From Actinomycetes bacterium (GTDB taxonomy: Bacteria; Actinomycetota; Thermoleophilia; Gaiellales; F1-60-MAGs149), in contig JANYCN010000034.1 of the NCBI GenBank assembly GCA_025360225.1, forward strand, positions 34,063-98,062: a stretch of 64,000 bases of DNA. Reading direction: 5' to 3'. The notes below the pieces were generated by a model, which was given only the letters and a program-made list of their open reading frames with translations, was not told where the DNA came from and did no database searches. Each line of letters starts with the position of its first letter. The stretch's first letter is position 1. Positions 2 through 51,888 of the stretch are shown here, piece by piece. The position numbers and the translations under genes were made by a program.

Positions 2-793
2 GGCAACCCGTGCGCGATCGACGAGATCGAGACCGTCATCGAGCGTGCCAACGGGGCCGGTGGGCGGATCGACCTGCTGGAGGACACGTGCGAGGCTCTC
101 GGCGCGAGCTTCGCCGGCAAGCAGTGCGGGAGCCACGGGGTGATGGGGACGTACAGCTTCTTCTTCTCCCACCACATCTCGACGATGGAGGGGGGGATGG
201 TCGTGACGGATGACGCCGATCTCGCCGAGACGCTCACCTGTCTTCGCGCCCACGGCTGGACGCGCGATCTCCCGCCCGGGTCGATGCTTGCTCGCGGGCT
301 CTCCGACGATCCGTTCGAGCGGCAGTTCCGCTTCCTTCTTCCGGGCTACAACGTCCGGCCGCTCGAGCTTGCAGCGGCGGTCGGGCTCGTCCAGGTGGAG
401 AAGCTGCCGCGCTTCATCGAGCAGCGTCGCGAGAACGCCGCCACCGCCCGGCGCCTGCTCGCGCCGCTCGCGGGAACGTTTGACCTGCAGAGGGAGACGG
501 CCGAGAGCTCGTGGTTCGGCTTCGGCATCACGATCACCGGCGTTGACCGTCGGGTCGTCACGCGGGCACTGCTCGCACGCGGGATCGAGCACCGGCCGAT
601 CATCACGGGGAACTTCGCCCGGCAGCCGGTCCTCAGGCACCTCGACCACCGGATCTCGGGCCCGCTCACCGGGGCAGACCACGTCGACCGCTGCGGCCTG
701 TTCGTCGGCAACCGGGAGCACGACCTCAGCGCCGAGCTCTCGTTGCTCGCCGCGACCCTGGAACGCCTCACCGAGGAGCGGCTGGCAGCATGA
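2..793 (+). CDS. ColD/E1-like PMP-dependent nucleotide-sugar 3-dehydratase with the DegT/DnrJ/EryC1 fold; the 5' end lies outside the window
   Basis: Frame 2 is open from the window edge into ORF 140..793. The translation ...[17 protein letters not shown] fits the SFxxxKxxxxGEGG cofactor motif but has His in the Lys position, as in ColD and E1 dehydratases. There is an ATGA overlap with gmd at 790-793. Confidence 0.75.
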
Positions 794-1845
794 GACGCGC
801 GTTGATCACCGGCGTGACTGGCCAGGACGGCTCGTACCTCGCCGAGCTTCTCCTCGCCAAGGGCTACGAGGTCCACGGTCTCGTACGGCGATCGTCGTCC
901 TTCAACACGGCGCGCATCGACCACCTGTTCCGCGATCCGCACGACCCGGAAGCCCGGCTGCACCTCCATCACGGAGACCTGTCGGACTCGGGGAACCTCC
1001 GTGGCCTCCTCGAGCGCACCCGGCCAGACGAGATCTACAACCTTGGCGCGCAGTCGCACGTGCGCGTCAGCTTTGACCAGGCCGAGTACACGGCGGACAT
1101 CGACGCTCTCGGCACGCTGCGGTTGCTCGAGGCGATCCGAGACCACGTGCGGATGACGGGTCACGATGTCCGCTTCTACCAGGCAGGGTCGTCGGAGATG
1201 TTCGGCTCCACGCCGCCGCCACAGTGCGAGACGACGCCCTTTCACCCACGCTCGCCCTACGCCGTCGCGAAGGTCTTCAGCTACCACCAGACGATCAACC
1301 ACCGCGAGGCGTTCGGCCTGCACGCTAGCAACGGGATCCTCTTCAACCACGAGTCGCCGCGCCGAGGCGAGACGTTCTTCACGCGCAAGATCACGCGCGC
1401 GGCGACGCGGATCGTCTACGGGCTGCAGGACGCCGTGCACGTCGGCAACCTCGACGCGCAGCGAGACTGGGGGCACGCCGAGGACTACGTCGAGGCGATG
1501 TGGTTGATGCTCCAGGCCGACGAGCCGGGGGACTACGTCGTTGCGACCGGCCAGATGATCGCCGCAGGCGAGTTCGCCCGGAGGGTGTTCGCCCGTCTCT
1601 CGCTCTCCGCCGAGCGGCACCTGCGCTACGACGAGCGCTACCTGCGAGCCGCCGAGGTCGATGCGCTCCAGGGCGACGCCGGCAAGGCCCGGGCCGTGCT
1701 CGGGTGGGCACCGCGACGCACCGTTGACGACCTGATCGAGGACATGGTCGTGAGCGACCTGGAGCTCGCTCGCCAGGAACGTCTGATCCGTGACAGCGGG
1801 AAGCCAGCCGACGCTCCCACCTGGAGCGAGCGGTGGGCGAGCTGA
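790..1845 (+). CDS. gmd: GDP-mannose 4,6-dehydratase
   Basis: [46 protein letters not shown]..., the YAVAKV (YxxxK) motif and [11 protein letters not shown] are all characteristic of Gmd. Length is 351 aa. Confidence 0.95.
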
Positions 1846-2759
1846 TCCTCGTCACCGGCGCCGGCGGCTTCGTTGGCGCGGCGCTGACGGCACGGCTCGT
1901 CCGGCTCGGACACGACGTCGTCGCGGTCACTCGGCCGGACGGGAACACCGCTCGCCTCACCGGGCTCCTCGGTCAGATCGAGGAGCGTCCCGTCGACCTG
2001 ACGTCGGGAGCCGCGATCGGACGGCTCGTCGACGACGTGAGGCCGACGGTCTGCGTCCACTGTGCCGCCGTCGGCGCGACGACGGTCTCGGAGGACGCCG
2101 ATGCGCTCGTCGCCGTGAACACGCTCGCCCCGCTCGCGTTCGCCAGGGCTCTGAGCCTGACCGGTTGCCGGCGTCTCGTCACCGTCGGCTCGAGCTCCGA
2201 GTACGGCCCGTCCGGCGAGCCGATGACGGAGGCGATGCTCGCGCGCCCCGACGACCTGTACGGCGCGACGAAGCTCGCCGGCGGGATCCTCGCCGGTACC
2301 GCAGCCCGGGCCGCCGGCCTCTCGGCCTGTCACGCCCGCCTCTTCTCGGTGTACGGCCCTGGGGAGGATCGACGACGGCTGATCGCCGCCGTCGCGAGCG
2401 CCGTCGTGAGCGGCAGGGCGGTCGAGCTCACCGAGGGCGCGCAGCGTCGCGACCTGGTCTTCATCGATGACGCCGTCGAGGCCCTCGTCCTCGCGATCGC
2501 CTCACCCGACCCGCCGGCGGTGTTCAACGTCGGCACGGGCCTCGGCTCGAGCGTTCGCGACGCGTGCCTTGCGCTTGCCGACGCCGCAGGGGCCAACCAC
2601 GACCTGCTGCGGTTCGGCGCCCTACCGTACCGGTCTGGCGAGCGGTTCGCCTGGAGCGCCGATCCTGCACGGGCCACGGCGCGCCTGGGCTTCGTCGCGA
2701 GGACGTCCCTCGTCGACGGCGCGAGGAAGACGGTGCAGGCGCTACTGGCCCACGCCTGA
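1833..2759 (+). CDS. NAD-dependent epimerase/dehydratase (extended SDR); possibly a ColC/Fcl-like GDP-4-keto-3,6-dideoxyhexose epimerase-reductase
   Basis: GTG start. It has the [13 protein letters not shown] Rossmann motif and the YGATK catalytic YxxxK. Length is 308 aa. It sits immediately downstream of gmd with a 13-nt overlap. Confidence 0.8.
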
Positions 2760-3305
2760 CCAGCGGACACGCCACCAGGCGTCGGCAGCAAGGAACGCCT
2801 CGTCGACCGTCGCGGCCTGGGCGACATGACCGAGATCGGCGACGATGACCGAGTGCCCACGCGCGCGGACATGCCAGGCGATCTCCGCCTCGAACGCTTC
2901 TGGCGGCACGAAGGCCGCTCGCTCGACGAGGTCGAGGTGGGCGGGTGCGACGGCGATCACCGGCGGCGCAGGGCAGTGCACCTCTCCCGCTTCGACGACC
3001 TCCGCTGTCCACCAGCGCAGGTCTTGGACGTGACGCGCGCCGGCGGCGGCGACGAGGCCGACCCCCTCGATCGCCAGCGCCGCACGGATCCGGGCACAGA
3101 GCCCGAGCGATCCAAACGTGGCCCGGGGCCGCGCCAGAACAAGCGCCTCGAGACCGGCGAGGCCACGCGCAGCTACGGCGATCTCGCGGTAGCCGTCGAC
3201 GAGGTCGTGCGCGTCCGACACGTAGCTGAGCGAGTCCGCCTCACCGTGTGTCTGCACGCACGCCTCGAACGTGCCAGCGGGCTCGAGCGACCCGAAGACG
3301 ATCAC
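2742..3305 (-). CDS. Hypothetical protein, last gene of the minus-strand sugar operon
   Basis: It lies within ORF 2742..3356. The GTG at 3305 forms a GTGA overlap with the stop of the upstream gene (3302-3304). I recognise no family motif. Confidence 0.4.
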   Translation of the reverse strand: MIVFGSLEPAGTFEACVQTHGEADSLSYVSDAHDLVDGYREIAVAARGLAGLEALVLARPRATFGSLGLCARIRAALAIEGVGLVAAAGARHVQDLRWWTAEVVEAGEVHCPAPPVIAVAPAHLDLVERAAFVPPEAFEAEIAWHVRARGHSVIVADLGHVAQAATVDEAFLAADAWWRVRWSGVGQ

Positions 3306-4327
3306 GCGGGCTGGCCCCACACGACGTCGAGCATCGCCCGGAAGCGCGCCGTCCACGTGTGCTCCCGGCTCGACCGCTTCCAGGCTGCCGTCGCCATCGC
3401 GATCCGCCGCTCGGGGTCGGCCAACAGGCGCCTGGTCTGCGTCACGCAGTCGTCGGGCGTCGCGTAGATCGCGATCTCCGAGCCGATCGCGAGCAGGTCC
3501 TCCAACCCGATGACGTAGTTCGAGAGCTGCGCCCCACCAGCGATGGCGATCTCGAAGTGCCGCGCCTTCACCTGCTCGTGCGCCTTTGCCATGTCACGGT
3601 TGGAGAGGAAGTTGCGCGGGTCCTCGAGCAGGTAGCGCGTGTCCATCTGACGTGAGTTCGAGACGTTCAGGTTCACGCGGCTCGTGCGGAAGACGTCGGC
3701 CATCTCTGCGAAGGTGACGCGACCGCGCGGCCAGCCTGCGCCGAAGCACTGCACGTCGATGCCGTCTCGTTGGAGGAACCGGACGAGCCAGGCCCGCCAC
3801 GGGTTGACGCCGCCGACGAAGGAGACGTCGTAGCGGAACGCCTCGTCGTCGCTGATCGGTCCGCCCCCGGCGTCGACCAGCTCAGCCGCGTACGCCGTCA
3901 CGATCGGGTGCCCACCGAGCGCCCGGTAGGCAGGTACGACGGATGCCTCGGTGGTCGCGCAGTACGTGAAGACGTCAGCGTAGTGGCGCGAGAAGGAATC
4001 GAAGCGCCACTGGTCGTCCCAGAAGAAGGCGAGCGTCGGAGCGTGCGAGCGGACCGTCCGCCACAGGTCGGTGGAGAAGTCGTGCTCGAACGTTGAGTAG
4101 AAGACGAGGTCGGGCCGGAAACGCTCGACCGCGTCGAGCAGCGCCGCGTCGAGGCTTCCCTTGGAGCGCATCGCGCCGTCGGTGTCGAACACCTCGCACT
4201 CGCCAACGAGCCCGGTGATCGCCGGCTGGAAGAACGAGCGGTCAAACGACGTCCCGCGCGCCGGGTCGCCGTAGTCGTACGCCGGGATCGCGAGAAGGAC
4301 CCTCCGGTCCGGATGGTCAGGCGGCAC
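3302..4327 (-). CDS. CgeB-family (Glyco_trans_1_2 type) glycosyltransferase-like protein
   Basis: The motifs RYDVSFVGGVNPWRAWLVRFL...GAGWPRG...RVNLNVS...KARHFEIAIAGGAQL...ADPERRIAMATAAWKRSSREHTW resemble the CgeB/YkvP family. I chose the GTG at 4327 as start. The Arg/Ser-rich N-terminal extension of the 403-aa ORF overlaps rfbG and is unlikely to be coding. Confidence 0.7.
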   Translation of the reverse strand: MPPDHPDRRVLLAIPAYDYGDPARGTSFDRSFFQPAITGLVGECEVFDTDGAMRSKGSLDAALLDAVERFRPDLVFYSTFEHDFSTDLWRTVRSHAPTLAFFWDDQWRFDSFSRHYADVFTYCATTEASVVPAYRALGGHPIVTAYAAELVDAGGGPISDDEAFRYDVSFVGGVNPWRAWLVRFLQRDGIDVQCFGAGWPRGRVTFAEMADVFRTSRVNLNVSNSRQMDTRYLLEDPRNFLSNRDMAKAHEQVKARHFEIAIAGGAQLSNYVIGLEDLLAIGSEIAIYATPDDCVTQTRRLLADPERRIAMATAAWKRSSREHTWTARFRAMLDVVWGQPA

Positions 4328-5312
4328 GCCGCTGGCCGTTCGCGCCGTCGAGGTATCGCTCGTACCACCCGACGGTGCGCTCGATCCCGGCGTCGAGCCC
4401 GAACCGCGGCTGCCAGCCGAGCAGCGTCCGGGCCTTTGCCGCCGAGAGGTGCTGTGCGGGGATCTCGTGGAGCGCGGTCGCGCCGATCGATGCCTCGAGA
4501 TCGGGGCGTCCACATGCCTCGATCAGGCGGGTGGTCATCGCGAGCGCGCTGAGCGGCGTCTCGTTCGAGAAGTTGAAAGCCTCGCCACGGATCATTGGCT
4601 CGTGCGCGCGCTCTGCGAGCCGCACGTAGGCGTCGGCGGCGTCGTCAACGTAGAGGTAGTCGCGGATCGGTGAGCCGTCGCTCCGCAGGAGCGGCGAGCG
4701 GCCCGCGAGCGCGTCCCGGATCGCTCCAGGCACGAGACGGTTGAAGTTGAGGTCGCCGCCGCCGTAGAGGTTTCCGCAACGCGTCACCACGACCGGCAGG
4801 TCATACGTCGTCGCGTAGGTCTGGGCGATCAGGTCGGCGCAGCTCTTTGAGACGTCGTAGGGATGGCGTCCGGCGAGCGCCTGGTCCTCGCGATACGGCA
4901 GATCGACCTGGCTTCCGTACGCCTTGTCCGACGAGGCGACGACGATCCGGCTCGGGCGGGCGCTTCGCCGGCAGGCGTCGAGTAGCTCCCACGTCCCTGC
5001 GACGTTCGCGCGGAACGTCCCGATCGGGCTCCGCAGGGCGTGGCCGACGATCGTCTGAGCCGCCAGGTGGAACACCGCGTCGATCTCATACTCGACGAGC
5101 ACACGCTCGACGAGGGAGCCGTCCTCGACGTCCCCCGACACGGTGACGCAGCGCGCACGGTCGCCGCTCGTCTCGAGGAGCGCGTCGGGCACGACGTCGC
5201 GAACGAGCGCCACGACGCGCGCTCCCTCTCCGATCAGACGTGGCACGAGCCACGAGCCAAGCAGCCCCGTGGCACCGGTGACGAGGACCGGCCTGTCCTG
5301 CCAGAAGCTCAT
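4317..5312 (-). CDS. rfbG: CDP-glucose 4,6-dehydratase
   Basis: [26 protein letters not shown] is the typical RfbG N-terminus, and YDVSK is the YxxxK motif. The ATG at 5312 (by frame arithmetic) shares one nt with the rfbH stop (TGATG). Confidence 0.85.
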   Translation of the reverse strand: MSFWQDRPVLVTGATGLLGSWLVPRLIGEGARVVALVRDVVPDALLETSGDRARCVTVSGDVEDGSLVERVLVEYEIDAVFHLAAQTIVGHALRSPIGTFRANVAGTWELLDACRRSARPSRIVVASSDKAYGSQVDLPYREDQALAGRHPYDVSKSCADLIAQTYATTYDLPVVVTRCGNLYGGGDLNFNRLVPGAIRDALAGRSPLLRSDGSPIRDYLYVDDAADAYVRLAERAHEPMIRGEAFNFSNETPLSALAMTTRLIEACGRPDLEASIGATALHEIPAQHLSAAKARTLLGWQPRFGLDAGIERTVGWYERYLDGANGQRRAA

Positions 5313-6673
5313 CAGCCGGCCTTTCGCAGGCGTGAGCGCCACGTTGCGAACGTCGCCGCGACGTGCTCAACGTGCGCTTCCCCGATCCCCGGGAAGCACC
5401 CGATCCAGAGGCTGTTCTCGGCAATCTGGTCGGTCGTGTCGAGCCGGCCAACAACGCGGTGAACGCATTCCCGGTAGGCGGGCTGGCGTAGGAGGTTTCC
5501 GGCGAAGATCTGCCGCGTTGCGATGCCGGCTCCTTCGAGGTGACGGACGAGGTCGCGGCGACTCAGACCGGCCTCGGCACGGAGCGTGAGCGCGAAGCCG
5601 AACCAGCTCGGGTCGCTTCCCGCCGTCGCCTCGGGCAGCACGAGGACGTCGGCGTAGGACGCGAGCGCCGTGGAAAGCCGTGCGTGGTTGGCCCGACGGG
5701 CGGCGACGAACTGGGGGAGCCGTTCGAGCTGGACGCGGCCGATCGCCGCCTGCAGGTCGGTCGCCTTCAGGTTGTAGCCAACGTGGGAGTAGACGTACTT
5801 GTGGTCATACCCGGCAGGGAGCGTGCCGAGCTGCTGGTCAAACCGTTTCCCGCAGGTGTTCTCGCAACCAGGCTCACACCAGCAGTCCCGGCCCCAGTCG
5901 CGGATCGACTCGACGATGCGCTTCAGCGCCGGGCGTCGGGTCAGGACCGCACCGCCCTCGCCCGTGGTGATCTGGTGCGCCGGGTAGAAGCTAAGCGTCG
6001 CGAGCGCACCGAACGTGCCAACCTGGCGTCCGTCAAACGTCGCACCGAGAGCGTCACAGCAATCCTCGACGAGGTAGAGGTCGTGCCGCTCGCAGAAGGC
6101 AGAGATCGCTGCGAGGTCGAACGGGTTGCCGAGCGTGTGTGCGAGCACGACCGCCCGCGTCCGCGCCGAGCGAGCCGCCTCGAGCCGTGCAACGTCGATG
6201 TTGTAGGTCGGCAGCGTGACGTCGACGAACACCGGCACGAGGCCGTTCTGCAGGAGCGGGGCGACGGTCGTCGGAAAGCCGGCGGCGACGGTGATCACCT
6301 CGTCACCGGCGACGAGGCGTCGATCCGCGAGCAGCGGCGAGCAGAGCGCGGAGACGGCAGCAAGGTTGGCGCTCGACCCCGAGTTCACCATCAGGGCGTG
6401 GCGTTGCCCCGTCGCACGGGCCAGCGCGCGCTCGAAAGCGCGCGTCTCCGGTCCGGCCGTGAGCCAGAAGTCGAGCGATGCGCGCACCGCCGCGACCACC
6501 TCGGCAGCGCCGTAGACACGACCGGAGACCGGCACCGACGGTGCGGCCGGGTTGAACGACGCCGCCTCGCAGCGTGCGTCAACGAGGTCGGCGACCTGCG
6601 CCAGCAGTGCATCGCGGGGCTCCACGCGTTCGCTATCGGCAGGCAGACGACCATCCTTGAAAGCGGTCCTCAT
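5312..6673 (-). CDS. rfbH: CDP-4-keto-6-deoxy-D-glucose 3-dehydrase (E1, RfbH/DdhC-like), PMP-dependent
   Basis: It has the DegT fold and the motif [14 protein letters not shown], with His replacing the Schiff-base Lys. It also has the Cys-rich [16 protein letters not shown] segment expected for the E1 Fe-S site. I chose the ATG at 6673, 15 nt after the upstream stop. Confidence 0.85.
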
Positions 6674-6687
6674 CCTGCTTTCAAGCA

Positions 6688-8025
6688 CTACGCCGCGCGC
6701 TCCGTGGCCGGAAGGCGGTGCCATCGTGCAGGATCGATCGGTTGATCGAGCGGGTCGGGCGCCGCATAGGGATACACCGGGTAGCCGAGATCCTCGATTC
6801 GTCGCCCCTCGTCGCTGCCGAATCGCGTCAGGAGCAGAGATCCTGGCGTAAGCACCGCCTCCGGTCGGGTGCCGCAGAGGAGATCGCAGTCAAGATCGGG
6901 AGCCGGCTCGAAGGCTGGTCCGATCGTCTCGAGCACGACGTTCGCGTCCTCGTTCTCGCTGACGACGGCGATCCTTCCCGCCCCGGCGCGCTTCAGCGCC
7001 TGAAGCGTCTCGACGAGCGACACGGCCTCCTCGCTCGTCGTCGGCGTCGTCGCGATGACGGTGAACGGGCGCGCGAGGCCCGGCAGGTCGGCATCGCTCA
7101 GGGTGATCCTCACGACGTCGCGAACCTCCTCGCTCTCGGGACAGTGCAGGAGGGCGCTGATCGCCGCGGCGTAGCCCGAGTGCCCGGTGACCGCCGCCCG
7201 GCGGTGCCCGTCGGTGAGGAGCCGGGCCCGGACGCTCAGCGCGACCCGCGCCTCGAGCCGCGCGGCCGCTTCACGCACGGCGTCGGGCATGGCAGCGTCG
7301 CGGGTGATCGAGCGGATCGCCGCTGGTAGCTGGCTCGCGTAGACGGCGGTGCGGCGCGAGTCAGACGTGCCGGAAGAGGCGTGGAAACGAAGCCGTACGA
7401 GCGGCTCAGCGAGCGAGACGACGCCGTAGCGCGCCGCGAGCCGCACCCAGAGGTGCCAGTCGCCGCAGAACGTCAGGCGCGCATCAAACCCGCCGACGGC
7501 GAGGAGCGCCGCTCGTCGAGCGACGACGCTTGGCAGCGACGCCTCGTTGTCGGGCAACAAGCGGGGGACGAACGCGCCGGCAGGGAGGTATCGCGGCACC
7601 TCAGCGAGCCCGAGCGGCCACTGGCCGAGCACGTTGTCGGCGTCATCGATGAGCGTGCAGGTGGAGTGTGCGAAAGCGGCGTCGGTCGTGGCGAGCGCGT
7701 CGACCTTGCGCGCCAGGTTCCCCGGCTCCATCACGTCATCGTCGGTGAAGAACGCGACCCACGGCGCTCGCGACTCGGCGATTCCCCGGTTCATCGAGCC
7801 GTAGACGTGCAGGTCGTGCTCGTTGCGGGTGTACCGGACACGACGGTCTCGCGCGGCGTACGCGGTGACGATCGCCGCCGTCTCGTCCGTCGACCCGTTG
7901 TCGTACACGGCAAGCTCGAGCGACACGCCCTTCTGTGCAAGGATCGAGTCGATCGACGAGCCGAGGTATCGCTCGCCGTTCTTCACGGGCAGGATCACGG
8001 TCAGCTGCGGCTCGTTGTCCTGCAC
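6688..8025 (-). CDS. Family 2 glycosyltransferase with a C-terminal extension of unknown function
   Basis: [24 protein letters not shown]...[12 protein letters not shown]...FFTDDDV is the GT-A fold with its DxD motif. The start is the GTG at 8025. Confidence 0.85.
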
Positions 8026-8032
8026 GAACGGT

Positions 8033-8061
8033 GTATCGACCGCTCACGCGCCTTCCTCAAG
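8033..8061 (-). promoter_or_regulatory. Sigma-28-like promoter (copy D) for the GT2-rfbH-rfbG operon
   Basis: On the minus strand the sequence reads CTTGAG-N15-GTCGATAC, then 7 nt, then the GTG at 8025. The -35 hexamer is the reverse complement of the -35 of copy A. Confidence 0.55.
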
Positions 8062-8084
8062 CCAGCTTCAAGCGTTGCCGATAC
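8056..8084 (+). promoter_or_regulatory. Sigma-28-like promoter (copy A) for the ThDP enzyme-rfbF operon
   Basis: CTCAAG (8056-8061), then N15, then GCCGATAC (8077-8084). The ATG at 8095 follows 10 nt downstream. Confidence 0.6.
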
Positions 8085-8094
8085 CACGGAGAAG

Positions 8095-9813
8095 ATGGCA
8101 ACCCTGGCTGACTGGCTCGGCTCGTTCCTGTTCGAGCAGGGCGTTCGCCGCGTCTATCACGTGCCGGGCGGGATGATCGCGTTGCTCATCGACGCGCTCG
8201 CGCAAACGCCTGGGATCGAGGTGATCACGACCCGCCACGAACAGGGCGCGGCGTTCGCGGCCGAGGGCGAGGCGCGGCTCACGGGCATCCCGGGCGTCGC
8301 CCTCGCGACCTCGGGTCCCGGCGCGACGAACCTCCTCACAGGGATCGGCTCGTGCTACTTCGACTCGATTCCCGCGGTCTTCATCACAGGCCAGGTGAAA
8401 CGCTCCGAGCAGCGGGGGACGCGAGCGGTCAGGCAGGTCGGCTTTCAGGAGACCGATATCGTCGTGATGGCGGCGCCGGTGACGAAGGCGGCGATCGCGA
8501 TCCGGACGATCGAGGAGGCTGCGGGCGTCTTCGAGGACGCGTTCCGCATCGCGCTCAGCGGCCGGCCGGGGCCTGTTCTCGTTGACGTTCCGCTCGACCT
8601 GCAGCGCGCGGAGGTGAGACGCCGCCCGCGCCTCGTCGCGGGACAGCCTCCCGTTGCGGCGTCCGAAGCCGACGTGAAGCGCGCCGCTCGTCGTCTGCTC
8701 GCGGCGGAACGGCCGCTGCTCCTCGCGGGCGGCGGTGTCTGGCACGCCGACGCCCAGCAGGCGCTGGTGCGGGTGGCCACGCTCGCCGACACGCCGATCG
8801 TGCACAGCTTGATGGCGACCGACGTCGTGCCCGCCGGCCACCGTCACCGCTGCGGGATGATCGGCACGTACGGCAACCGTTGGGCGAACCTCGCGCTCGG
8901 GCGCAGCGACCACCTGCTCGTCGTCGGCAGCCGACTCGACATCCGACAGACAGGTGCTGACGTTGCGTGGTTCTGTCACGATCGCACGGTCGATCGAGTG
9001 GACTGTGACGAGGCCGAGCTCGCCGAGCCGGCGGCTACGGAGGCGATCCGCGGAGACGCGCGGCTGTTCCTGTCGGCGCTCGCCGACGAGCTGCTCCAGC
9101 TCGAGCCACCGCCTGCGCGTAACGCGTGGCTCGACGAGATCGGCGACCTGCGCACCGCGTGGCCAGACGTCGACGAGGTCGGTGACGTCGGGAACATCAA
9201 CCCGAACGCGTTCGTCGCGGAGCTGACGGCGGGCGCCGCGAGCGTCAGCGCCATCGTCACCGATGTCGGCCAGCACCAGATGTGGCTCGCACAGTCCGTC
9301 CGTCCGCGTTCTGGTCAACGGGTGATCACGCCCGGGGGCATGGCCGCAATCGGCTTCGGGCTGCCGGCAGCGATCGGCGTCTCGCTCGCCGACCGGTCGA
9401 GCCGCGTGCTTCTCGTCACCGGCGACGGCGGGCTCCAGACGAACCTGCAGGAGCTCGAGACGCTCGTGCACCTGAACCTCGACGTGACCATCGTCGTCCT
9501 TGACAATCGCTGTCACGGGATGGTGCGGCAGTTCCAGACAAGCTACCTCGACGGCAGGCACGTCGGGACGCGCGACGGCTACAGCGCGCCAGACTTCCTG
9601 CGCGTCGCAACGGCCTTCGGCATCCCGTCGCTTGGGATCGCCGAGCCGGCGGAGGTCGGCTCGGGGGTCGACTTCGCGCTCGACGGGTCGGGCCCACGGC
9701 TCCTCGTCGTCGCCGTCGATCCGGACTGCGACGTCTACCCGAAGGTCGCCTTCGGGCGCCCGCTGACCGAGATGGAACCGTTCGTTCGACCCGTTGCCTT
9801 GGAGGGAACGTGA
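8095..9813 (+). CDS. Thiamine-diphosphate-dependent enzyme of the acetolactate-synthase fold; YerE-like candidate for branched-chain sugar synthesis
   Basis: MATLADWLGSFLFEQGVRRVYHVPGGMIALLIDAL...TRHEQGAAFAAEGEARLTG...ATSGPGATNLLTG and the later GDGGLQTNLQELET motif mark a ThDP enzyme. Length is 572 aa. It has a GTGA overlap with rfbF. I saw no ALS small subunit. Confidence 0.8.
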   Translation: MATLADWLGSFLFEQGVRRVYHVPGGMIALLIDALAQTPGIEVITTRHEQGAAFAAEGEARLTGIPGVALATSGPGATNLLTGIGSCYFDSIPAVFITGQVKRSEQRGTRAVRQVGFQETDIVVMAAPVTKAAIAIRTIEEAAGVFEDAFRIALSGRPGPVLVDVPLDLQRAEVRRRPRLVAGQPPVAASEADVKRAARRLLAAERPLLLAGGGVWHADAQQALVRVATLADTPIVHSLMATDVVPAGHRHRCGMIGTYGNRWANLALGRSDHLLVVGSRLDIRQTGADVAWFCHDRTVDRVDCDEAELAEPAATEAIRGDARLFLSALADELLQLEPPPARNAWLDEIGDLRTAWPDVDEVGDVGNINPNAFVAELTAGAASVSAIVTDVGQHQMWLAQSVRPRSGQRVITPGGMAAIGFGLPAAIGVSLADRSSRVLLVTGDGGLQTNLQELETLVHLNLDVTIVVLDNRCHGMVRQFQTSYLDGRHVGTRDGYSAPDFLRVATAFGIPSLGIAEPAEVGSGVDFALDGSGPRLLVVAVDPDCDVYPKVAFGRPLTEMEPFVRPVALEGT

Positions 9814-10616
9814 ACGCACCGAAGGTCGTGATCCTCTGTGGTGGACAGGGAACGAGGCTCCGCGAGGAGACGGAGTTTCGCCCGAAGCCGATGGTCGAGG
9901 TGGGTGGTCGGCCGCTCCTGTTCCACATCATGAAGCTGTATGAGCACCACGGCTTGAACGAGTTCGTGCTCTGCCTCGGCTACCGCGGCTCGATCATCAA
10001 GGAGTACTTCCTCAACTACCGCACGCTGAACGGCGACTGCACCGTCGACCTGCGTTCGGGTACCGTCGAGCTTGAAGGCTCGCCGACCGAGGACTGGCGG
10101 GTCACCCTCGCAGAGACCGGAGAGGACGCGATGACGGGCGCTCGGATCAGCCGAGTCGCGCGTCACGTCGGCAACGACGACGTGTTCTGCTGCACCTACG
10201 GCGATGGCCTCGCGGACGTCGACGTGTCGGCGCTCCTCGACTTCCACCGCGCACACGGGAAGGTCGCGACCGTCACCGGCGTCGTCCCGCCTGGCCGCTT
10301 CGGCCAGCTTCGCACGAGCGGCGCCGCCGTCCAGCGCTTCGCCGAGAAGCCGACGGGACGCGAGCGGATCAACGGCGGCTTCTTCGTCTTCTCCCGTTCG
10401 ATCTTCGACGTCCTCTCCGACAAGCCGAGCTGCGTGCTCGAGCGCGAGCCGCTCGAGCAGCTCGCCGCCGCGGGTGAGCTGATGGTGTACGAGCACGACG
10501 GGTTCTGGCAGTGCGCCGACACGCTGCGCGACGTCGAGCTGCTTCGCGGGCTCTGGGATGGCGGCGCGCCGCCGTGGCGGGTGTGGGACGCGGTGCGCGC
10601 ACCGCTCGCCGCGTAG
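9810..10616 (+). CDS. rfbF: Glucose-1-phosphate cytidylyltransferase
   Basis: KVVILCGGQGTRLREETEFRPKPMVEVGGRPLLFHIMKLYEHHGLNEFVLCLGYRGSIIKEYFLNY is a near-canonical RfbF sequence. Confidence 0.9.
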   Translation: MNAPKVVILCGGQGTRLREETEFRPKPMVEVGGRPLLFHIMKLYEHHGLNEFVLCLGYRGSIIKEYFLNYRTLNGDCTVDLRSGTVELEGSPTEDWRVTLAETGEDAMTGARISRVARHVGNDDVFCCTYGDGLADVDVSALLDFHRAHGKVATVTGVVPPGRFGQLRTSGAAVQRFAEKPTGRERINGGFFVFSRSIFDVLSDKPSCVLEREPLEQLAAAGELMVYEHDGFWQCADTLRDVELLRGLWDGGAPPWRVWDAVRAPLAA

Positions 10617-10623
10617 TCCCTGG

Positions 10624-12003
10624 TCAGGCAGCGAGCGCAGCGAGGTACCGCGGCGCGACGGCGTCCCACGAGTACTCCGCGCGGTAGCGCGCGCGTCCTG
10701 CCACACCGAGCTGCTGGCGAACGGCGCCGTCCGCAAGGAGCGCGGCGATCGCCTCGCCGAGGCCGCTGTTCGGCACGATCAGGCCGCCGGCCAGGTCAGG
10801 AGCGGAGCCGCACGTCTCGGACGCGATCCAGGGAAGGCCGTGGCTCATCGCCTCGAGCAGCACGAGCGGCGTTGCCTCGGCGATCGACGGCAACACGAGG
10901 ACGTCCGCTTCCCGCATCGACCCGGCGACCTCCTCCCGCGTCCGTCCACCGAGCAGCGACACGCGCGCGTCGCTGGACGCCGCGGCGATGATCGCGTGCG
11001 CGAGATCGCGGTGCCCCGGAGCCGGGCCGCCGATGCAGACGAGGCGCGCGTTCGACGGCGCGGCGCGGAAGGCCTCGAGGAGACCGAGATGGTTCTTCTC
11101 GGGCCAGAAGTTCGCGACGTGCAGGACGAGCGGCGTCGCCAGATCAACCTCAATCGCGTCTCGAAGACCAGGCGTCGGGTCGATCACCGGAACCGCGTTC
11201 GGCAGGTACGTCCCCGGCACCCCGAGATGATCGAGCAGTCGCCGATCCCAGCCTGCGTACGAGCTGAACCCGACCGCGTCGACCCGCAGGAGCGCCCTGC
11301 TGTAGGCCTCCGCCTGGTCAGCGCGTGCCCGGACGAGCCGGTCACCATCCTCGTTCACGCACGGCACCACGAGCGAGCGGATGCGCTGCAGGGGGTGGGG
11401 AAGGCCAAGCACCGAGCGGATCGGGTAGCCGCCCGGCGAGGAGATGCCGATCACGGCACCGAAACGGCCGGACGCGAGGAGCGCGTGCAGGGCTTCCTCG
11501 GCGAGTGCCGGCGCCGTGCCGTGGACGGTGATGCCACGCCACCCCGCAACGCGGTCCCGGTGCTCGTAGCAGAGCACCTCGGTCGGTCGGCCGCGTGCGG
11601 TCAGCTCGAACGCGAGGTCGGCAGCGAGCATCTCGGTGCCGCCGACGGACGGGTGGAACAGCTCGACGACGAGCAGGATCCGGTCGCTGACCATCCGCTC
11701 GTCGCCGCCGTAGGCGAGCGCCTCGCCGCAGACGTCGAGCGCCTGGCGCGCCTCGACGAGGTCGGGAGCGACAGCGACGGCGTGTCGTGCGTAGGCGTAG
11801 GCGTCGGCGACCTCGCCCGCATCGTGGAGGACGACCGCGATGTCGGCGAGCGCCTCCGCCCACAGCCGCGTACCGGCGCCGGCGGCGCGTCGGACGGACT
11901 CCAGCGCGCTGTAGGCACCCGTCGCGTCGCCGTCAGCGAACTGCCCCTCCGCCGCCTCGAGCAGGTGGCGGAGATGCTCCTCGTCCGGCGCGTCGGCGAT
12001 CAT
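10624..12003 (-). CDS. TPR-like N-terminal region fused to a GT4 (GT-B) glycosyltransferase
   Basis: ILLVVELFHPSVGGTEMLA...EATPLVLLEAMSHGLPWIAS are GT4 motifs. The start is uncertain (ATG 12003, ATG 12009 or TTG 12063). I chose 12003 because it lies 8 nt after the -10 block of promoter copy C. Confidence 0.75.
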   Translation of the reverse strand: MIADAPDEEHLRHLLEAAEGQFADGDATGAYSALESVRRAAGAGTRLWAEALADIAVVLHDAGEVADAYAYARHAVAVAPDLVEARQALDVCGEALAYGGDERMVSDRILLVVELFHPSVGGTEMLAADLAFELTARGRPTEVLCYEHRDRVAGWRGITVHGTAPALAEEALHALLASGRFGAVIGISSPGGYPIRSVLGLPHPLQRIRSLVVPCVNEDGDRLVRARADQAEAYSRALLRVDAVGFSSYAGWDRRLLDHLGVPGTYLPNAVPVIDPTPGLRDAIEVDLATPLVLHVANFWPEKNHLGLLEAFRAAPSNARLVCIGGPAPGHRDLAHAIIAAASSDARVSLLGGRTREEVAGSMREADVLVLPSIAEATPLVLLEAMSHGLPWIASETCGSAPDLAGGLIVPNSGLGEAIAALLADGAVRQQLGVAGRARYRAEYSWDAVAPRYLAALAA

Positions 12004-12011
12004 CTGCATCG

Positions 12012-12094: not shown

Positions 12095-14764
12095 GTGTCG
12101 GCAACCTCGCCACGGGTGACGCTCGCGATCGCAACCCACGACCGTCCAGCGTACCTCGCTGAGGCGCTCGCCAGCGCGTACGCGCAGGACTACGCCGACC
12201 TGGAGATCCTCGTCGTTGACGACGCCTCGGGGCCGGAGACCGTGGCGCTCCTCGACGCCCAGAGCGACCCGCGCCTGCGCGTCCTGCGCCTCGACGAGAA
12301 CGTCGGCATGGTCGGCGCGTTCAACCGGCTCTGGCAGGAAGCACGCGGTGAGCTGGTCGCGATCCTCGACGACGACGACGTCTGCGTGCCGGATCGCGTC
12401 AGCCGCTCGGTCGCCGTCTTCGACCGGCACCCCGGTACGCACGTCGCCTTCGGCGACTCGATCACGATCGACGCGAACGGTCTACCGATCGGCGAGTGGA
12501 CGGTCGGGCACCTCGCCGGCGAGCGGCTCCTTGACGTCCTCGTACGGCGCGTCAACATGATCTGCCACACGACCGTGATGGTCCGTCGCAGCCTGTACGC
12601 GACGCTCGGCGGCTACGACGTCGACCTCCCTGTCGCGCAGGACTACGAGCTGTGGCTCCGAGCCCTGCCCGATCACGAGTTCCGGACGATCCCGGGTGGG
12701 CCGGTGGTGCGCGTTCGCCGACACGGGGCGAACTCGACCACGGCGGCGATGCCTGAGCGAGAGCAGGCGTACGTCGAGCTCAGCATCCGAAAGGCGCTGG
12801 GGTACAGGACGCTGCGCGAGCTCGTCCCGGAGATCGCCTGGGACGCCATCCCGGAGGCGTGGGCCGAGCGGCACGCGCGGATCGTGCTCGCAGCGGCGTT
12901 CGCGCGCCGCGGGCTCACCGCGCTCGCCGCCGAGCAGCTCGAAGGCGCCGACGCGGGCCCGCAGACCTTCGACGCGGCGGCCCGTGCCGACCCGACGTTC
13001 GCGGAGCCGGGCTCGCGCGGCTCGATCGTCCTCACCTCGTTCGGCTGGAACGATGCCGGGGGCGGCACGCGGGTGCCGCGAAACGTCGCACGCGCGCTCG
13101 TCCGTCGTGGGTACGCCGTGACGGTGTTCTACGCCGGCGTCGCTGAGCGTCCCGGGTTGACGCCGTACGCGGTCGAGGAGACGAGCGAGGACGGGATTGA
13201 CCTCGTCGGCGTGTTCAACCGACCACACGGCCTGCTCGACCTCGGCCACCCGCTTCGCGAGATCGACGACCCACCGATCGCGCGAGCCTTCGGCGAGCTG
13301 CTCGATCGGGTAAGGCCCAACGTGATCCACTACCACAACCTCCACAACCTCGGAGCGTCGCTCGTCGACGAGTCGCGATCACGGGGTATCCCAGCCGTCT
13401 TCTCGACGCACAACTACTGGCTCGTCTGTCCGCGCAACTACCTCTTCCGCGCCGACCTCTCGCTCTGCGACGGCCCGGCGGACGAGGGTCGGGCGTGTGC
13501 GTCGTGCGTCGACGCACCGCACCTGAGCGACGGCTACGCGGCCCGACGCAGCGGTGTTCGCGACCGGTTTTCGGCCGGCGTCGAGACCTGCCTCGCCGTC
13601 TCTGAGACGGTCGCTCACACGCTGCTCGACACCGGCTTCGACGATCGGCTCGTGCAGGTCCTGGCACAGGCGATGCCCGAGCCGGAAGGGCTCTGGCGCG
13701 CCGTCGGCGAGGCGCGACCGGCAGGCCGCCGCGGGCGCGACCTCGTCGTCGGCTTCCTCGGCTCGGCGTACCCACACAAGGGGCCCCAGGTGCTCGTCCT
13801 GGCAGCGCAGGCGATGCCCACGGACGTGCGCGTCGAGGTCCACGGCGACGTGCCGCAGCGCACGATCGGCGCCCTTCAGGCGCTTGACCGGCTCGGTCGC
13901 GTCGAGTTCGCCGGCCCGTACTCCGAGCACGACCTGCCGGCGATCCTCTCACGGATCGACGTGGCGGTCGTCCCCTCGGTCTGGTGGGACTGTGCACCGC
14001 TCGTCGTCGCCGAGTGCCTCGCCGCCGGCGTGCCGGTCGTCGGCGCGCGGATGGGCGGGATCGCCGAGGCGATCGACGATGACGTCGATGGGCTCCTCGT
14101 CGCCGGCGGCGACCCGGGCGCGCTCGCAGGGGCGATCACCCGTCTGACGACCGAGCAAGGGCTGCTCGAACGTCTCCAGGCCGGCATCAAGGCACCCGCG
14201 TCGTTCGCCCGCTACGTCGACGCGCTCGAGAGCGCGTACGCAGGCACCTATCGACGAGCGGTCGGAACGCTCACCACCGAGAGCGGCGTGGGACTTCCCC
14301 AGCGCCCCCGACCGGAGCGGGAAGTCCCGCACGCTGCGGAGAAGCTGGTGCGCTTCACGACCCGGACGAGGGCGCTCGTCGCGGCGCCCTGCTGGGGCGA
14401 CCCGGACGGTCTCGAAGCGATCCTCGCGTGCTGGGCGTCGGCGTTCACCGAGGCCGACGACGTCGCCCTCGTGCTGCTCGCCGACACGCACGTCGACGGC
14501 CGCAGCGACGAGCTCGCGGGACGGATCGATGAGGCGGCGCGGGCGCGCGGGATCGACCTCGACGGTGACCTCGCGGAGCTCGTGCTCGTCGATGACGCCA
14601 GCGCCGGCCGCGCCCTCGCGCACGCAGCGGCGGGCGATGGCTACCTGTGCCTGCACCGCGGCGCGCCTGGCCTCGAGCGCGCAGCGGTGCGCGCCGGAGT
14701 GCCGTTGCTCGAGCTCGACGTTGCAGCGTTTCGCGGCTGGTCGACGGGGCGGATCGCCGCGTGA
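12095..14764 (+). CDS. Three-module glycosyltransferase: GT2, GT4 and a C-terminal half-Rossmann module
   Basis: The N-terminus VTLAIATHDRPAYLAEAL...VVDDASGPET...ILDDDDV is GT2. The middle region IVLTSFGWNDAGGGTRVPRNVARAL...APLVVAECLAAGVPVVGARMGG is GT4. The C-terminal ~130 aa (LVAAPCWGDPDGLEAILACWASAFTEADDVALVLLAD) recurs in the next two GT4 proteins. Confidence 0.85.
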   Translation: MSATSPRVTLAIATHDRPAYLAEALASAYAQDYADLEILVVDDASGPETVALLDAQSDPRLRVLRLDENVGMVGAFNRLWQEARGELVAILDDDDVCVPDRVSRSVAVFDRHPGTHVAFGDSITIDANGLPIGEWTVGHLAGERLLDVLVRRVNMICHTTVMVRRSLYATLGGYDVDLPVAQDYELWLRALPDHEFRTIPGGPVVRVRRHGANSTTAAMPEREQAYVELSIRKALGYRTLRELVPEIAWDAIPEAWAERHARIVLAAAFARRGLTALAAEQLEGADAGPQTFDAAARADPTFAEPGSRGSIVLTSFGWNDAGGGTRVPRNVARALVRRGYAVTVFYAGVAERPGLTPYAVEETSEDGIDLVGVFNRPHGLLDLGHPLREIDDPPIARAFGELLDRVRPNVIHYHNLHNLGASLVDESRSRGIPAVFSTHNYWLVCPRNYLFRADLSLCDGPADEGRACASCVDAPHLSDGYAARRSGVRDRFSAGVETCLAVSETVAHTLLDTGFDDRLVQVLAQAMPEPEGLWRAVGEARPAGRRGRDLVVGFLGSAYPHKGPQVLVLAAQAMPTDVRVEVHGDVPQRTIGALQALDRLGRVEFAGPYSEHDLPAILSRIDVAVVPSVWWDCAPLVVAECLAAGVPVVGARMGGIAEAIDDDVDGLLVAGGDPGALAGAITRLTTEQGLLERLQAGIKAPASFARYVDALESAYAGTYRRAVGTLTTESGVGLPQRPRPEREVPHAAEKLVRFTTRTRALVAAPCWGDPDGLEAILACWASAFTEADDVALVLLADTHVDGRSDELAGRIDEAARARGIDLDGDLAELVLVDDASAGRALAHAAAGDGYLCLHRGAPGLERAAVRAGVPLLELDVAAFRGWSTGRIAA

Positions 14765-16422
14765 CACGGGTGCTCCTGACCTCCTACGGCTGGGAGGATG
14801 CCGGCGGCGGGACGCGCGTCCCACGAAACGTCGCGCGGGAGCTGCGCCGTCGCGGACACGACGTGACGGTGTTTCACGCCGCTGTCGACGACCTCGCAGG
14901 GGCGCCAGAGTACGCCGTCCGCAGGTGGCGGGACGGTGACGGCATCGAGCTCGTTGGCGTCCACAACCGCCCGCACGTGATGCTCGATCTCGACCAGCCG
15001 CTGCGCGAGATCGACGACCCGGCGATCTCCGCGACGTTCGGCGCGACGCTCGATCGTGTCCGCCCCGAGGTGGTGCACTTTCACAACCTGCACAACCTCG
15101 GCGCGGCGCTGATCGACGAGACGCGTGCGCGCGGCATCCCGGCGTTCTACACGACCCACAACCACTGGCTCGTGTGCCCTCGCGCGTACCTCGTCACGGC
15201 GGCGGGCGAGCTGTGCGACGGCGTCGCCGACGAGGGACGATCGTGCGCGGCGTGCGCGAACGCGCCAGCGCGGGCGCGGGAGTTCGCCGTGCGCCGGAGC
15301 GAGGTCCGCGATCGCTTCACCCTCGGCGTCGAGCGGTGCCTCGCCGTCTCGGCCAGCGTCGCACGCACCATGGAGAGCGTCGGCTACCGGCCCGACCAGA
15401 TCGTCGTGCTGCAGCAGGCGATGCCTGAACCAGAGGAGCTGTGGCGGCTGGTCGGCCGCGATCGCGCTCCGGGGCCGATCGGCGAGGGCCTCGTTGTCGG
15501 CTTCATCGGCTCGGCGCACGCGCTGAAGGGTCCAAAGGTGCTGGTTGACGCCGCGCAGCTGCTCCCGCCCGGTGTCCATGTCCGGATCCACGGCGACGTG
15601 CGCCCGGACGTCGAACGGTGGCTTCGCTCCGCCGACACAGGAGCCCGCGTCGAGCTCGCCGGTGCGTTCGCGACTGCCGAGCTGCCGACGATCCTCGCCT
15701 CGATCGACGTCGCCGTCGTGCCATCCGTCGTGCAGGACTGTGCGCCTCTCGTGATCGCCGAGTGCCTCGCGGCACGCGTCCCCGTGGTGGGCGCACGGAT
15801 CGGCGGCATCCCCGAGCTTGTTCGCGATGGCGTCGACGGTCTGCTGTTCGCCCCTGGCGACGCCGACGCCCTCACGGCCGTGTTGACGAGGCTCGCAGAC
15901 GAGGACGGCCTGCTCGAGGAGCTGCAGGGTGCGATCGTCGCGCCGACGCCGTTCGCGACCTTCGTCGACGAGCTCGAGCGTACCTACGCAGGCTCCACGA
16001 CGGTGGCTGTGAGCGCCTCCTCGCAACGGAGACGTACGGGCGAGGTGCCGGGCGGCCGTGGTCGGAACCTGCTCGCAGCTCCAGCATGGGGACGCGGCGA
16101 TCTGCTCGACGCCCTGCTGCAGAGCTGGACAGAAGCGTTCTCACCGACCGACGACGTGGCGCTCGTGCTGCTCATTGACACCACTGGCGACAGCGACGTC
16201 ACGGCAGCGGGCGAGCAGATCGAGGCGATCATTGGCGGCGCCGGCGTCGCGGACGTCGTCCTGCTTCAGGCAACTGCCGGCGAGGCGCTCGCCCTCGCGG
16301 AGTCGTGCGACGGCGTCGTCGCCCTGCACCGCGGTGCACCCGGCCTCCTCCGCGCTGCGATCGCGAGCGGCGTACCCGTCGTCGCGCCCGACCACGCCGC
16401 GCTGCGAGCGTGGGCCGCATGA
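14761..16422 (+). CDS. GT4 glycosyltransferase plus a C-terminal half-Rossmann module (paralog 2)
   Basis: GTGA overlap at 14761-14764. Motifs are VLLTSYGWEDAGGGTRVPRNVAREL, APLVIAECLAARVPVVGARIGG and LLAAPAWGRGDLLDALLQSWTEAFSPTDDVALVLLID. Confidence 0.85.
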   Translation: MTRVLLTSYGWEDAGGGTRVPRNVARELRRRGHDVTVFHAAVDDLAGAPEYAVRRWRDGDGIELVGVHNRPHVMLDLDQPLREIDDPAISATFGATLDRVRPEVVHFHNLHNLGAALIDETRARGIPAFYTTHNHWLVCPRAYLVTAAGELCDGVADEGRSCAACANAPARAREFAVRRSEVRDRFTLGVERCLAVSASVARTMESVGYRPDQIVVLQQAMPEPEELWRLVGRDRAPGPIGEGLVVGFIGSAHALKGPKVLVDAAQLLPPGVHVRIHGDVRPDVERWLRSADTGARVELAGAFATAELPTILASIDVAVVPSVVQDCAPLVIAECLAARVPVVGARIGGIPELVRDGVDGLLFAPGDADALTAVLTRLADEDGLLEELQGAIVAPTPFATFVDELERTYAGSTTVAVSASSQRRRTGEVPGGRGRNLLAAPAWGRGDLLDALLQSWTEAFSPTDDVALVLLIDTTGDSDVTAAGEQIEAIIGGAGVADVVLLQATAGEALALAESCDGVVALHRGAPGLLRAAIASGVPVVAPDHAALRAWAA

Positions 16423-20548: not shown

Positions 20549-20549
20549 C

Positions 20550-40177: not shown

Positions 40178-40215
40178 GTCAGGGTCTCCTGCAGGGATGC
40201 GGGGGTTGGCGGTGG

Positions 40216-41736: not shown

Positions 41737-41745
41737 GTCGTTACC

Positions 41746-51680: not shown

Positions 51681-51888
51681 GTCGTCGCATCTCCTCGGCG
51701 CATTGGGCAACTGCTCCTTCTCTTCTCGCGCGTGCGTTGTCTTGAACCGCACGGCGCGGCTCGTTTCGGGTGTGTTCGGGGCGGCCAGGACGCGTTCCGT
51801 GGCGGGCCTGAACGATCGGTTTCTCCGTCGTGGGGATAACGGAGGTCTCCGCTAACCTACATGGTTCTACCGGAAACTGTCGATGTTT

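Follow-up and report, generated by a model that had tools for sequence, protein, structure and literature searches.

The window analysed here is a stretch of 64,000 nucleotides (64 kb) of contig JANYCN010000034.1, part of an incomplete, fragmented metagenome-assembled genome (MAG). Its region of interest (positions 4317-10616) combines genes for a cytidine diphosphate (CDP)-linked 3,6-dideoxyhexose with a gene for a thiamine diphosphate (ThDP)-dependent enzyme. Because the window is 70% G+C, genes were chosen by third-position GC and then compared with the public gene calls of the same DNA. A public contig with the same locus (L002) provided about 10 kb of DNA upstream of the left edge of the window, and a twin locus with 84% identity (L003) came from a Joint Genome Institute (JGI) metagenome.

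The region is organized as two divergent operons with 69 bp between them (8026-8094), where a GGAGAAG ribosome-binding site can be read right before the ATG of the ThDP gene. The plus-strand operon consists of the ThDP gene (8095-9813) followed by rfbF (9810-10616). The minus-strand operon contains, in order, a GT2 glycosyltransferase gene (6688-8025; Pfam PF00535, E = 3.8e-24), the gene of the 3-dehydrase E1 (5312-6688), a short-chain dehydrogenase/reductase (SDR) gene (4317-5312), a glycosyltransferase gene with a Glyco_trans_1_2 domain (3302-4327 in the public gene call; PF13524, E = 6e-26) and a small orphan gene (2742-3356), with neighbours that touch or overlap. The E1 and SDR genes lie 1.4-3.8 kb from the ThDP gene, in the divergent operon. 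Every element named in an earlier annotation made without database searches (the sequence-only reading) was found in its place or within a few codons of it. That annotation did not include a further SDR gene (1833-2759), a guanosine diphosphate (GDP)-colitose-type gene set, the probably Thermoleophilia-like nature of the host or a flagellar island devoid of membrane export genes, all of which are described below.

The rfbF product is a glucose-1-phosphate cytidylyltransferase (RfbF/DdhA) that scored 341.8 bits against TIGR02623 (cut-off 300.25) and is 51% identical to Yersinia DdhA. The SDR encoded at 4317-5312 on the minus strand, previously called rfbG, is a putative variant CDP-glucose 4,6-dehydratase. 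In the PDB it is most similar to enzymes of this function (1RKX and 1WVG), and the SDK and YxxxK motifs and an N-terminal FWQ are kept; however, the protein is divergent and reached only 201.6 bits against TIGR02622 (cut-off 278.45). It belongs to an SDR sub-family of about 338 amino acids whose members share 56-60% identity with the window protein but only about 31% with DdhB. Among the related loci, the variant was found in 19 (including L016, L020, L022, L064, L065, L072, L077 and L080) and canonical DdhB in 44, while none contained both. Since the two never occur together, the variant most likely represents the CDP-glucose 4,6-dehydratase of its loci, a second type of this enzyme that stands in for DdhB in the comparison of about 80 loci. 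Automatic annotation will miss it because it falls under the TIGR02622 cut-off.

The ThDP enzyme and its relatives

The ThDP gene encodes a protein of 572 amino acids with the fold of acetolactate synthase (ALS) and all three Pfam domains of that fold (TPP_enzyme_N, M and C). Its motifs comprise a catalytic HEQ at residues 48-50, GDG at 443-445 and the Asn of LDN at about 471 (GDG(X)25-N), together with GSRLDIRQTGAD, and its central domain harbors GGG and RLD(I)R stretches. YerE, the enzyme with which it had been compared, is a flavoprotein that carries flavin adenine dinucleotide (FAD). The TGA stop codon of the ThDP gene overlaps the GTG start codon of rfbF (cGTGAac at 9810-9813), so the proposed GTGA coupling of the two genes can be read directly from the DNA. 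No ALS small-subunit gene is present beside the ThDP gene, as had been claimed, or anywhere else in the 64 kb; its flanks are the divergent GT2 gene and rfbF, unlike the reference loci, in which ilvB-ilvN and ilvG-ilvM are each adjacent.

The archetype of the yersiniose pathway is that of Yersinia pseudotuberculosis O:VI. A reference YerE was found through a search with the Yersinia E1, which led to contigs whose E1 is named Y. intermedia by NCBI. Two such contigs contain the order ddhD-ddhA-ddhB-ddhC-[TPP enzyme]-[SDR], the last two corresponding to yerE-yerF, in a hemH-side O-antigen locus, and L086 served as the reference. Its YerE scored 745 bits against PDB 5AHK, which we take to be the structure of YerE from Pseudomonas protegens (PpYerE), an assignment that does not come from the PDB title. 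Direct similarity did not separate YerE from ALS: the window enzyme is 37.7% identical to Yersinia YerE and 37-39% identical to Escherichia coli IlvB and Citrobacter IlvG, so that pairwise identity is uninformative as a classifier. What places the enzyme in the YerE-like group is therefore its phylogeny, together with profile scores, signature columns and gene context.

A search of 5.8 billion proteins showed that the best relatives are 50-54% identical to the window enzyme and mostly carry the label 'acetolactate synthase' or 'thiamine pyrophosphate-binding protein'. The three relatives whose contexts were sampled all lie in sugar loci with a cytidylyltransferase gene, and the two contexts that were long enough also hold an SDR gene and a DegT/E1-type gene. 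A scan of one genome per species confirmed at least 581 relatives among 600 matched stretches, spanning Verrucomicrobiota, Bacteroidota, Chloroflexota, Planctomycetota, Acidobacteriota, Myxococcota, Legionella and others. Clustering of the open reading frames (ORFs) of 84 loci (80 genome loci, three metagenome loci and the window) revealed an E1 homologue in 70, SDRs in 72 and an RfbF homologue in 64, and the ThDP and E1 genes lie at most 3 kb apart in 62 of 65 loci. A YerE-like sub-class has already been recognized, with YpYerE, PpYerE, ErwE, JanthE, MyGE and MMAR_2332 as members, and more than 200 members were predicted by gene-cluster similarity (PMC9306805, PMC12247030).

In a neighbour-joining (NJ) tree with five proteobacterial ALSs as outgroup (true ilvB/ilvG genes from a plasmid collection), ALS was split from a group comprising the 80 sugar-locus homologues, YerE and the window protein in 100 of 100 bootstraps. 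A family profile, built without the window protein, its twin or YerE, gave 754 bits for the window protein, 595-598 for YerE and 427-475 for the five ALSs, while an ALS profile gave the window enzyme 471 bits, 283 below the family profile. The enzyme also scored below every NCBIfam ALS cut-off (455.1 bits against 538.35 for TIGR00118, and far below the cut-offs of the other ALS models), and Yersinia YerE was likewise under the ALS cut-off (410.9 bits). At the 13 columns that are fixed but different between the family and ALS, the window protein has eight family states and one ALS state, and YerE has ten and one. Identities at the family level point the same way: Yersinia YerE shares 42% with the family but 30% with ALS, and the window protein shares 49% with the family. 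Two common motifs of the family, GSRLD(I/V)RQTGAD (GSRLDIRQTG in the window) and RQxGFQE, align with GVRFDDRVTG and GTDAFQE of Arabidopsis ALS, respectively.

Some features weigh against this assignment. Identity to YerE is no higher than that to IlvB and IlvG, and among solved structures the top PDB match is E. coli ALS I (335 bits), ahead of the YerE-type structure 5AHK (319 bits). The enzyme has RHEQ, the ALS state, instead of HHEQ, and it branches below the family and YerE in 96 of 100 NJ replicates, in a tree whose outgroup is small and which was built by NJ rather than by maximum likelihood. Nevertheless, clustering with housekeeping ALSs, which the sequence-only reading had named as the result that would speak against its proposal, appeared neither in the tree nor in the profile scores. 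Phylogeny, profiles, signature columns and gene context all agree with a YerE-like ThDP enzyme tied to CDP-3,6-dideoxyhexose genes, as had been suggested, and sequence comparison thus supports a YerE-like enzyme rather than a housekeeping ALS. With IlvB, IlvG and IlvI it has the fold, the cofactor motifs and the level of identity in common, but differs from them in its scores under the curated cut-offs, the lack of a regulatory subunit gene, its clade and the GSRLDIRQTG stretch in place of GVRFDDRVTG. With the YerE-like lyases it shares the three-domain architecture, the catalytic Glu, the GDG...N motif, GSRLD(I/V)RQTGAD and a position beside genes for making CDP-4-keto-3,6-dideoxyglucose, and it is placed at the base of their clade.

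E1 and its electron source

The gene at 5312-6688 (minus strand) encodes E1, a CDP-4-keto-6-deoxyglucose 3-dehydrase dependent on pyridoxamine 5'-phosphate (PMP) and a [2Fe-2S] cluster (RfbH/DdhC/AscC), with 458 amino acids in the public gene call and a longest ORF that reaches position 6724. It scored 662.4 bits against the RfbH model NF011936 (cut-off 423) and, in phmmer, 528 bits over its full length against the E1 structure of Y. pseudotuberculosis (3BCX), and it is 55% identical to Yersinia DdhC (tblastn). RfbF and E1, both of which had been recognized in the sequence-only reading, are therefore above curated NCBIfam cut-offs. In the alignment to 3BCX, residues of the window protein match His220 (SFYPAH; His in place of the aminotransferase Lys) and the positions of Cys251, Cys253, Cys257 and Cys261, which accounts for the His-for-Lys replacement and the Cys-rich segment noted earlier. 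All four [2Fe-2S] ligands are kept, namely C193 (EDCCDALG), C251, C253 and C261. Because the cluster ligands are intact, a reductant-free mechanism like that of ColD is unlikely for this E1.

E1 needs two electrons, which are supplied in Yersinia by the reductase E3 (PMC8987622). The previous statement that no E3 is recognizable in the window was upheld by every search of the 64 kb: tblastn with Yersinia DdhD gave nothing at E<=1e-3, a profile of ferredoxin-NADP reductase (FNR)-type proteins gave a best E-value of 8.4 over six frames, regular expressions found no ferredoxin- or rubredoxin-type cysteine motif in any credible frame, and the called genes had no match to Pfam Fer2, FAD_binding_6 or NAD_binding_1. 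The family loci present the same picture. E1 with Cys193, His220 and Cys251/253/261 was found in 65 of 80 loci, only 13 of which contain any FNR-type gene, and of the 50 loci in which E1 is flanked by 6 kb or more on each side, 37 are without one. The 13 FNR loci comprise one with a true DdhD orthologue (L075, 40% identity), eight from Bacteroidota with an FNR that bears a C-terminal ferredoxin domain and four with shorter proteins. The absence of an E3 gene is thus the majority condition for YerE-like loci and not an oddity of this locus; it persists although the Fe-S ligands are kept, which makes the natural reductant of E1 a testable question.

The Bacteroidota FNRs, encoded beside E1 at about 6170-7200 of L030, L031, L037, L047, L058, L062, L067 and L082, have their 2Fe-2S domain at the C-terminus. 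Their domain order is opposite to that of Yersinia DdhD, to which they are only 23-25% identical, and three of them give short local matches only.

A precedent for an E1-type enzyme in a cluster without a dedicated E3 is SpnQ of the spinosyn forosamine pathway in Saccharopolyspora spinosa, which is served by general ferredoxin or flavodoxin reductase pairs (PMC8987622). The window E1, probably likewise from an actinobacterium, is a 3-dehydrase of the same PMP/[2Fe-2S] type; it is a close RfbH/DdhC-type enzyme for CDP sugars, whereas the substrate of SpnQ is a dTDP-2,6-dideoxy sugar of secondary metabolism. By analogy with SpnQ, the electrons for the window E1 would most likely be provided by housekeeping reductases working with ferredoxin or flavodoxin, and less likely by a dedicated E3 encoded elsewhere. 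The latter arrangement, an ordinary split ddh system with a DdhD/AscD-type reductase at a distant site, is possible but not favoured. It would be compatible with the fact that only 64 kb of a fragmented MAG was examined and with the DdhD orthologue of L075 and the FNR-type genes beside E1 in 12 other loci. However, an obligatory specific partner would not usually be missing from 37 of 50 loci with sufficient flanks, and the actinomycete SpnQ runs on general reductases.

Proposed pathway and its setting

C-branched deoxysugars are rare and strongly antigenic, and they interest chemists, for whom YerE-type enzymes are a means of making chiral tertiary alcohols. The identities of the genes, the conserved catalytic residues, the family membership by phylogeny and profile and the conserved neighbourhoods are established directly. 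From these we infer the chemical steps, the acyl donor, the electron source and the glycosylation target. Taken together, the sequence data make it fairly probable, though well short of certain, that the genes specify the CDP-linked synthesis of a yersiniose-type sugar, a 3,6-dideoxyhexose with a carbon branch at C4. In this route, RfbF would form CDP-glucose, which the variant SDR dehydratase would convert to CDP-4-keto-6-deoxyglucose. E1 would then remove the C3 hydroxyl by means of PMP and its [2Fe-2S] cluster, drawing two electrons from a reductase encoded outside the locus. The ThDP enzyme would decarboxylate a 2-oxo acid and add the acyl anion to the C4 ketone, yielding a tertiary alcohol with an acyl branch, and the SDR encoded at 1833-2759 would probably reduce the branch carbonyl. 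Finally, soluble glycosyltransferases of the island would attach the branched sugar, and probably also a colitose-like sugar, to protein, most likely flagellin.

The SDR at 1833-2759 (plus strand; SDR308) is an extended SDR of 308 amino acids and the candidate counterpart of YerF. It scored 188 bits against the profile of a 307-amino-acid SDR family and 19-44 bits against other SDR sub-families. The 307-amino-acid family is found in 37 loci upstream of the ThDP gene, within 300 bp of it in 35 of the 37 and at a median distance of 1 bp. Another SDR family, of 347 amino acids and weakly YerF-like, is found downstream, within 300 bp of the ThDP gene in 12 of 13 loci. The two families are unrelated; SDRs beside YerE-like genes were seen in about 50 loci in all (for example, L008:9074-9994 and L004:9716-10747). 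YerF is therefore not a general side-chain reductase among the loci compared, and these two SDR families fill its position. SDR308 is proposed as the side-chain reductase because it matches the ThDP-adjacent family and because the neighbouring GDP pathway is complete without it; it would probably act on the carbonyl of the branch, although it may instead be an epimerase. As for the donor, ErwE-type clusters provide a special one through their own aldolase and dehydrogenase genes (PMC9306805, PMC12247030), and the window differs from them in having none. Pyruvate is therefore the default guess, which would give an acetyl and then a 1-hydroxyethyl branch.

The locus follows the same logic as the Yersinia set ddhD-ddhA-ddhB-ddhC-yerE-yerF: the cytidylyltransferase and E1 are 51% and 55% identical, respectively, with His220 and the cluster cysteines kept, the ALS-fold ThDP enzymes fall in the same clade, and neither locus has an ALS small subunit. 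It differs in lacking homologues of ddhD (E3) and yerF, in the low identity of its 4,6-dehydratase to DdhB (31%) and of its ThDP enzyme to YerE (37.7%), in the division of its genes over two divergent operons with interleaved glycosyltransferases, and in its surroundings, as the Yersinia set lies in the hemH-gsk O-antigen locus and the window set in a flagellar context of a probably monoderm actinobacterium. The pathway is known and widespread and its biochemistry is not overturned; what the locus adds is a divergent, basal YerE-type member from an uncultured high-GC lineage.

The left end of the window contains a second deoxysugar set. The C-terminal part of a ColD-type GDP-4-keto-6-deoxymannose 3-dehydratase is encoded at 2-793 (plus strand), with its N-terminus left of the window; the full gene (L002:1503-2699) gave 385.7 bits against ColD (2GMS), keeps the active-site His, and reached 256 bits against the RfbH model, under its cut-off. 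It is followed by gmd (790-1845, plus strand), whose product, GDP-mannose 4,6-dehydratase, scored 485 bits against TIGR01472 (cut-off 415), and preceded by a gene for an Fcl/ColC-like SDR that resembles GDP-fucose synthase (229 bits against 7LL6), so that the set spans L002:538-2699. By sequence, the Fcl-like SDR, ColD and Gmd form a complete GDP-colitose-type set that does not require SDR308. One island therefore holds both kinds of 3-dehydratase, the reductant-free (E3-independent) ColD and the Fe-S-dependent E1.

Both sets belong to an island of 23 kb bracketed by flagellar and chemotaxis genes. Upstream of the window, the public contig L002 carries a FliM/CheC-like gene, cheY, the Fcl-like SDR gene and the full ColD (DegT-family) gene, and the right border is formed by the gene of the flagellar filament cap protein FliD (24326-26188, plus strand; Pfam FliD_N, FliD_C and Flagellin_IN). 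The island has about ten glycosyltransferase domains. To the right of rfbF lie a GT4 glycosyltransferase gene (10624-12009, minus strand; Glyco_trans_1_4 and Glycos_transf_1) and five consecutive genes for large soluble glycosyltransferases of up to 983 amino acids (12116-23066, plus strand), which by Pfam are a GT2-GT4 fusion, a GT4, a GT2, a double GT4 and a GT2 with C-terminal TPR repeats. The last of these, on the fliD side of the island, has the peptide S-glycosyltransferase SunS as its best NCBIfam match, under the cut-off. An ORF of 104 amino acids directly upstream of fliD (23189-23503, plus strand) has a FlaG-like stretch by eye (FEVRYGLDP...DGATGELVKTVPS) and matches neither an NCBIfam model nor, even at E<=1, a Pfam family. 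No multi-pass membrane protein, Wzx flippase, Wzy polymerase, ABC transporter or priming phosphoglycosyltransferase is encoded in the 23 kb. This layout fits an island for flagellin glycosylation. The flagellin glycosylation islands of Gram-positive bacteria such as Geobacillus, situated between the flagellin gene and flaG/fliD, are likewise variable blocks that combine nucleotide-sugar genes and soluble glycosyltransferases beside fliD without export machinery (PMC5109656). They differ from the window, in which neither a flagellin gene nor a Maf protein was seen and the 104-amino-acid ORF has no Pfam support as FlaG.

The nearest named relatives of the polyphosphate kinase encoded in the window are from Gaiellales, Miltoncostaeaceae, Thermoleophilia and Solirubrobacterales MAGs (59-62% identity). 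This makes a Thermoleophilia-like actinobacterium the probable host, one that would lack lipopolysaccharide (LPS) and is probably a monoderm of the Gram-positive type. Known YerE-type sugars are from LPS or lipooligosaccharide (PMC9306805, PMC12247030), and a literature search turned up no report of a colitose-type or C-branched dideoxyhexose on flagellin. The setting, next to a colitose-type pathway and within what is probably a flagellar island of an actinobacterium, is unusual and suggests that such sugars may occur beyond LPS, on the flagella of a probably monoderm bacterium.

Further observations count against the proposal as a whole. No reductant for E1 was identified within the 64 kb; no homologue of Yersinia YerF was found in the window or in 83 related loci (SDR308 against YerF gave E = 0.01, not significant); and SDR308 is translationally coupled to gmd and not to the CDP genes. 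No flagellin gene or domain was seen in the 64 kb or over the 10 kb upstream of it. A fliD homologue is missing from all other family loci, so the flagellar setting is specific to this lineage.

Given these observations, flagellin as the target of the island's glycans has, from the gene content, about an even chance. The same pathway could instead feed a cell-wall polysaccharide, an S-layer glycan or another secreted glycoconjugate, with the flagellar genes as mere neighbours, a possibility that we hold with limited confidence. The missing flagellin gene would fit such a destination, as would the polysaccharide-type context of the other family loci examined, with Wzx, Wzy, Wzz or Poly_export genes, and the LPS or lipooligosaccharide origin of the known sugars. 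About ten glycosyltransferase domains with no flippase, polymerase, ABC transporter, priming transferase or multi-pass protein argue the other way, as do the bracketing by the fliM/cheC-like gene, cheY and fliD and the GT2-TPR protein on the fliD side.

It is improbable that the ThDP enzyme branches a different keto-sugar, such as the GDP-4-keto-3,6-dideoxymannose of ColD or, if E1 had no reductant, CDP-4-keto-6-deoxyglucose. In favour of this reading, a full ColD route that needs no E3 is encoded at a distance of 5 kb, no E1 reductase is present in the 64 kb, and YerE-like enzymes accept many ketones in vitro (PMC9306805, PMC12247030). However, the ThDP gene overlaps the CDP-forming rfbF, its family travels with E1 and RfbF rather than with Gmd or ColD, and the full set of catalytic and cluster residues in E1 speaks for a functional enzyme. 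Least likely by far is an acetolactate or acetohydroxyacid synthase paralogue of amino-acid or acetoin metabolism that lies among sugar genes by chance, since its ALS fold, 37-39% identity to IlvB/IlvG, top PDB match to E. coli ALS I and RHEQ motif are outweighed by scores under every ALS cut-off, the lack of the small subunit seen in ilvBN and ilvGM, translational coupling to rfbF, the 100/100 split from ALS, the 283-bit advantage of the family profile and the E1 neighbourhood kept in 70 of 84 loci.

Returning to the CDP-linked yersiniose-type route, a more far-reaching hypothesis can be put forward tentatively, and with clearly less confidence than the route itself: a Thermoleophilia-like actinobacterium may build a flagellin glycan that combines a ColD colitose-type sugar with an E1/YerE-like yersiniose-type sugar, both of them classical sugars of Gram-negative O-antigens, with E1 running routinely on housekeeping ferredoxin or flavodoxin reductases here and in most of the hundreds of E1/YerE-like loci from various bacterial phyla that are devoid of E3. 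If this is true, the textbook E1-E3 pair would be the exception and not the rule.

Other genes of the window

The small orphan at the end of the E1 operon (2742-3356, minus strand; about 187-204 amino acids) has a counterpart in the twin locus (L003:352-915, 65% identity) and 32 distant relatives among 1.84 billion representative proteins, one of which has weak matches to Glyco_tranf_2_3 and Glyco_tranf_2_5. In appearance it is a degenerate GT-A glycosyltransferase, from which an internal segment and the acidic motif have gone missing. An ORF on the opposite strand (2826-3467) has similar codon statistics, and the choice of coding strand therefore rests on conservation in L003 and on the public gene calls. 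The orphan was also considered as a surrogate for E3 and rejected, because this rare protein is degenerate and GT-A-like and shows no flavin, NAD or Fe-S motif. In the twin locus, an additional gene for a BNR/sortilin-like protein of 745 amino acids (L003:4317-6554), absent from the window, is inserted between E1 and GT2.

Beyond the island, an ORF of 917 amino acids (31934-34687, minus strand) with a subtilase-type GTSVAAP motif and repeated Ig-like segments occupies an apparently gene-free gap. It overlaps the 3' end of the gene call for a CopC-CopD fusion (34435-36165), its start is uncertain, and its second-position GC hid it from the first third-position GC filter; considered as a possible reductase, it was rejected as a subtilase-like protease on the basis of GTSVAAP. 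The stretch at 36743-51752 (minus strand) encodes giant secreted-looking proteins (1200 amino acids with Big_13 and 2777 amino acids with a beta-helix) interleaved with two multicopper-oxidase-like proteins, and GC and AT skews shift strongly over 36-52 kb. A pyridoxal-dependent decarboxylase, a CHAD-domain protein and polyphosphate kinase 1 are encoded at 59292-63857 (minus strand).

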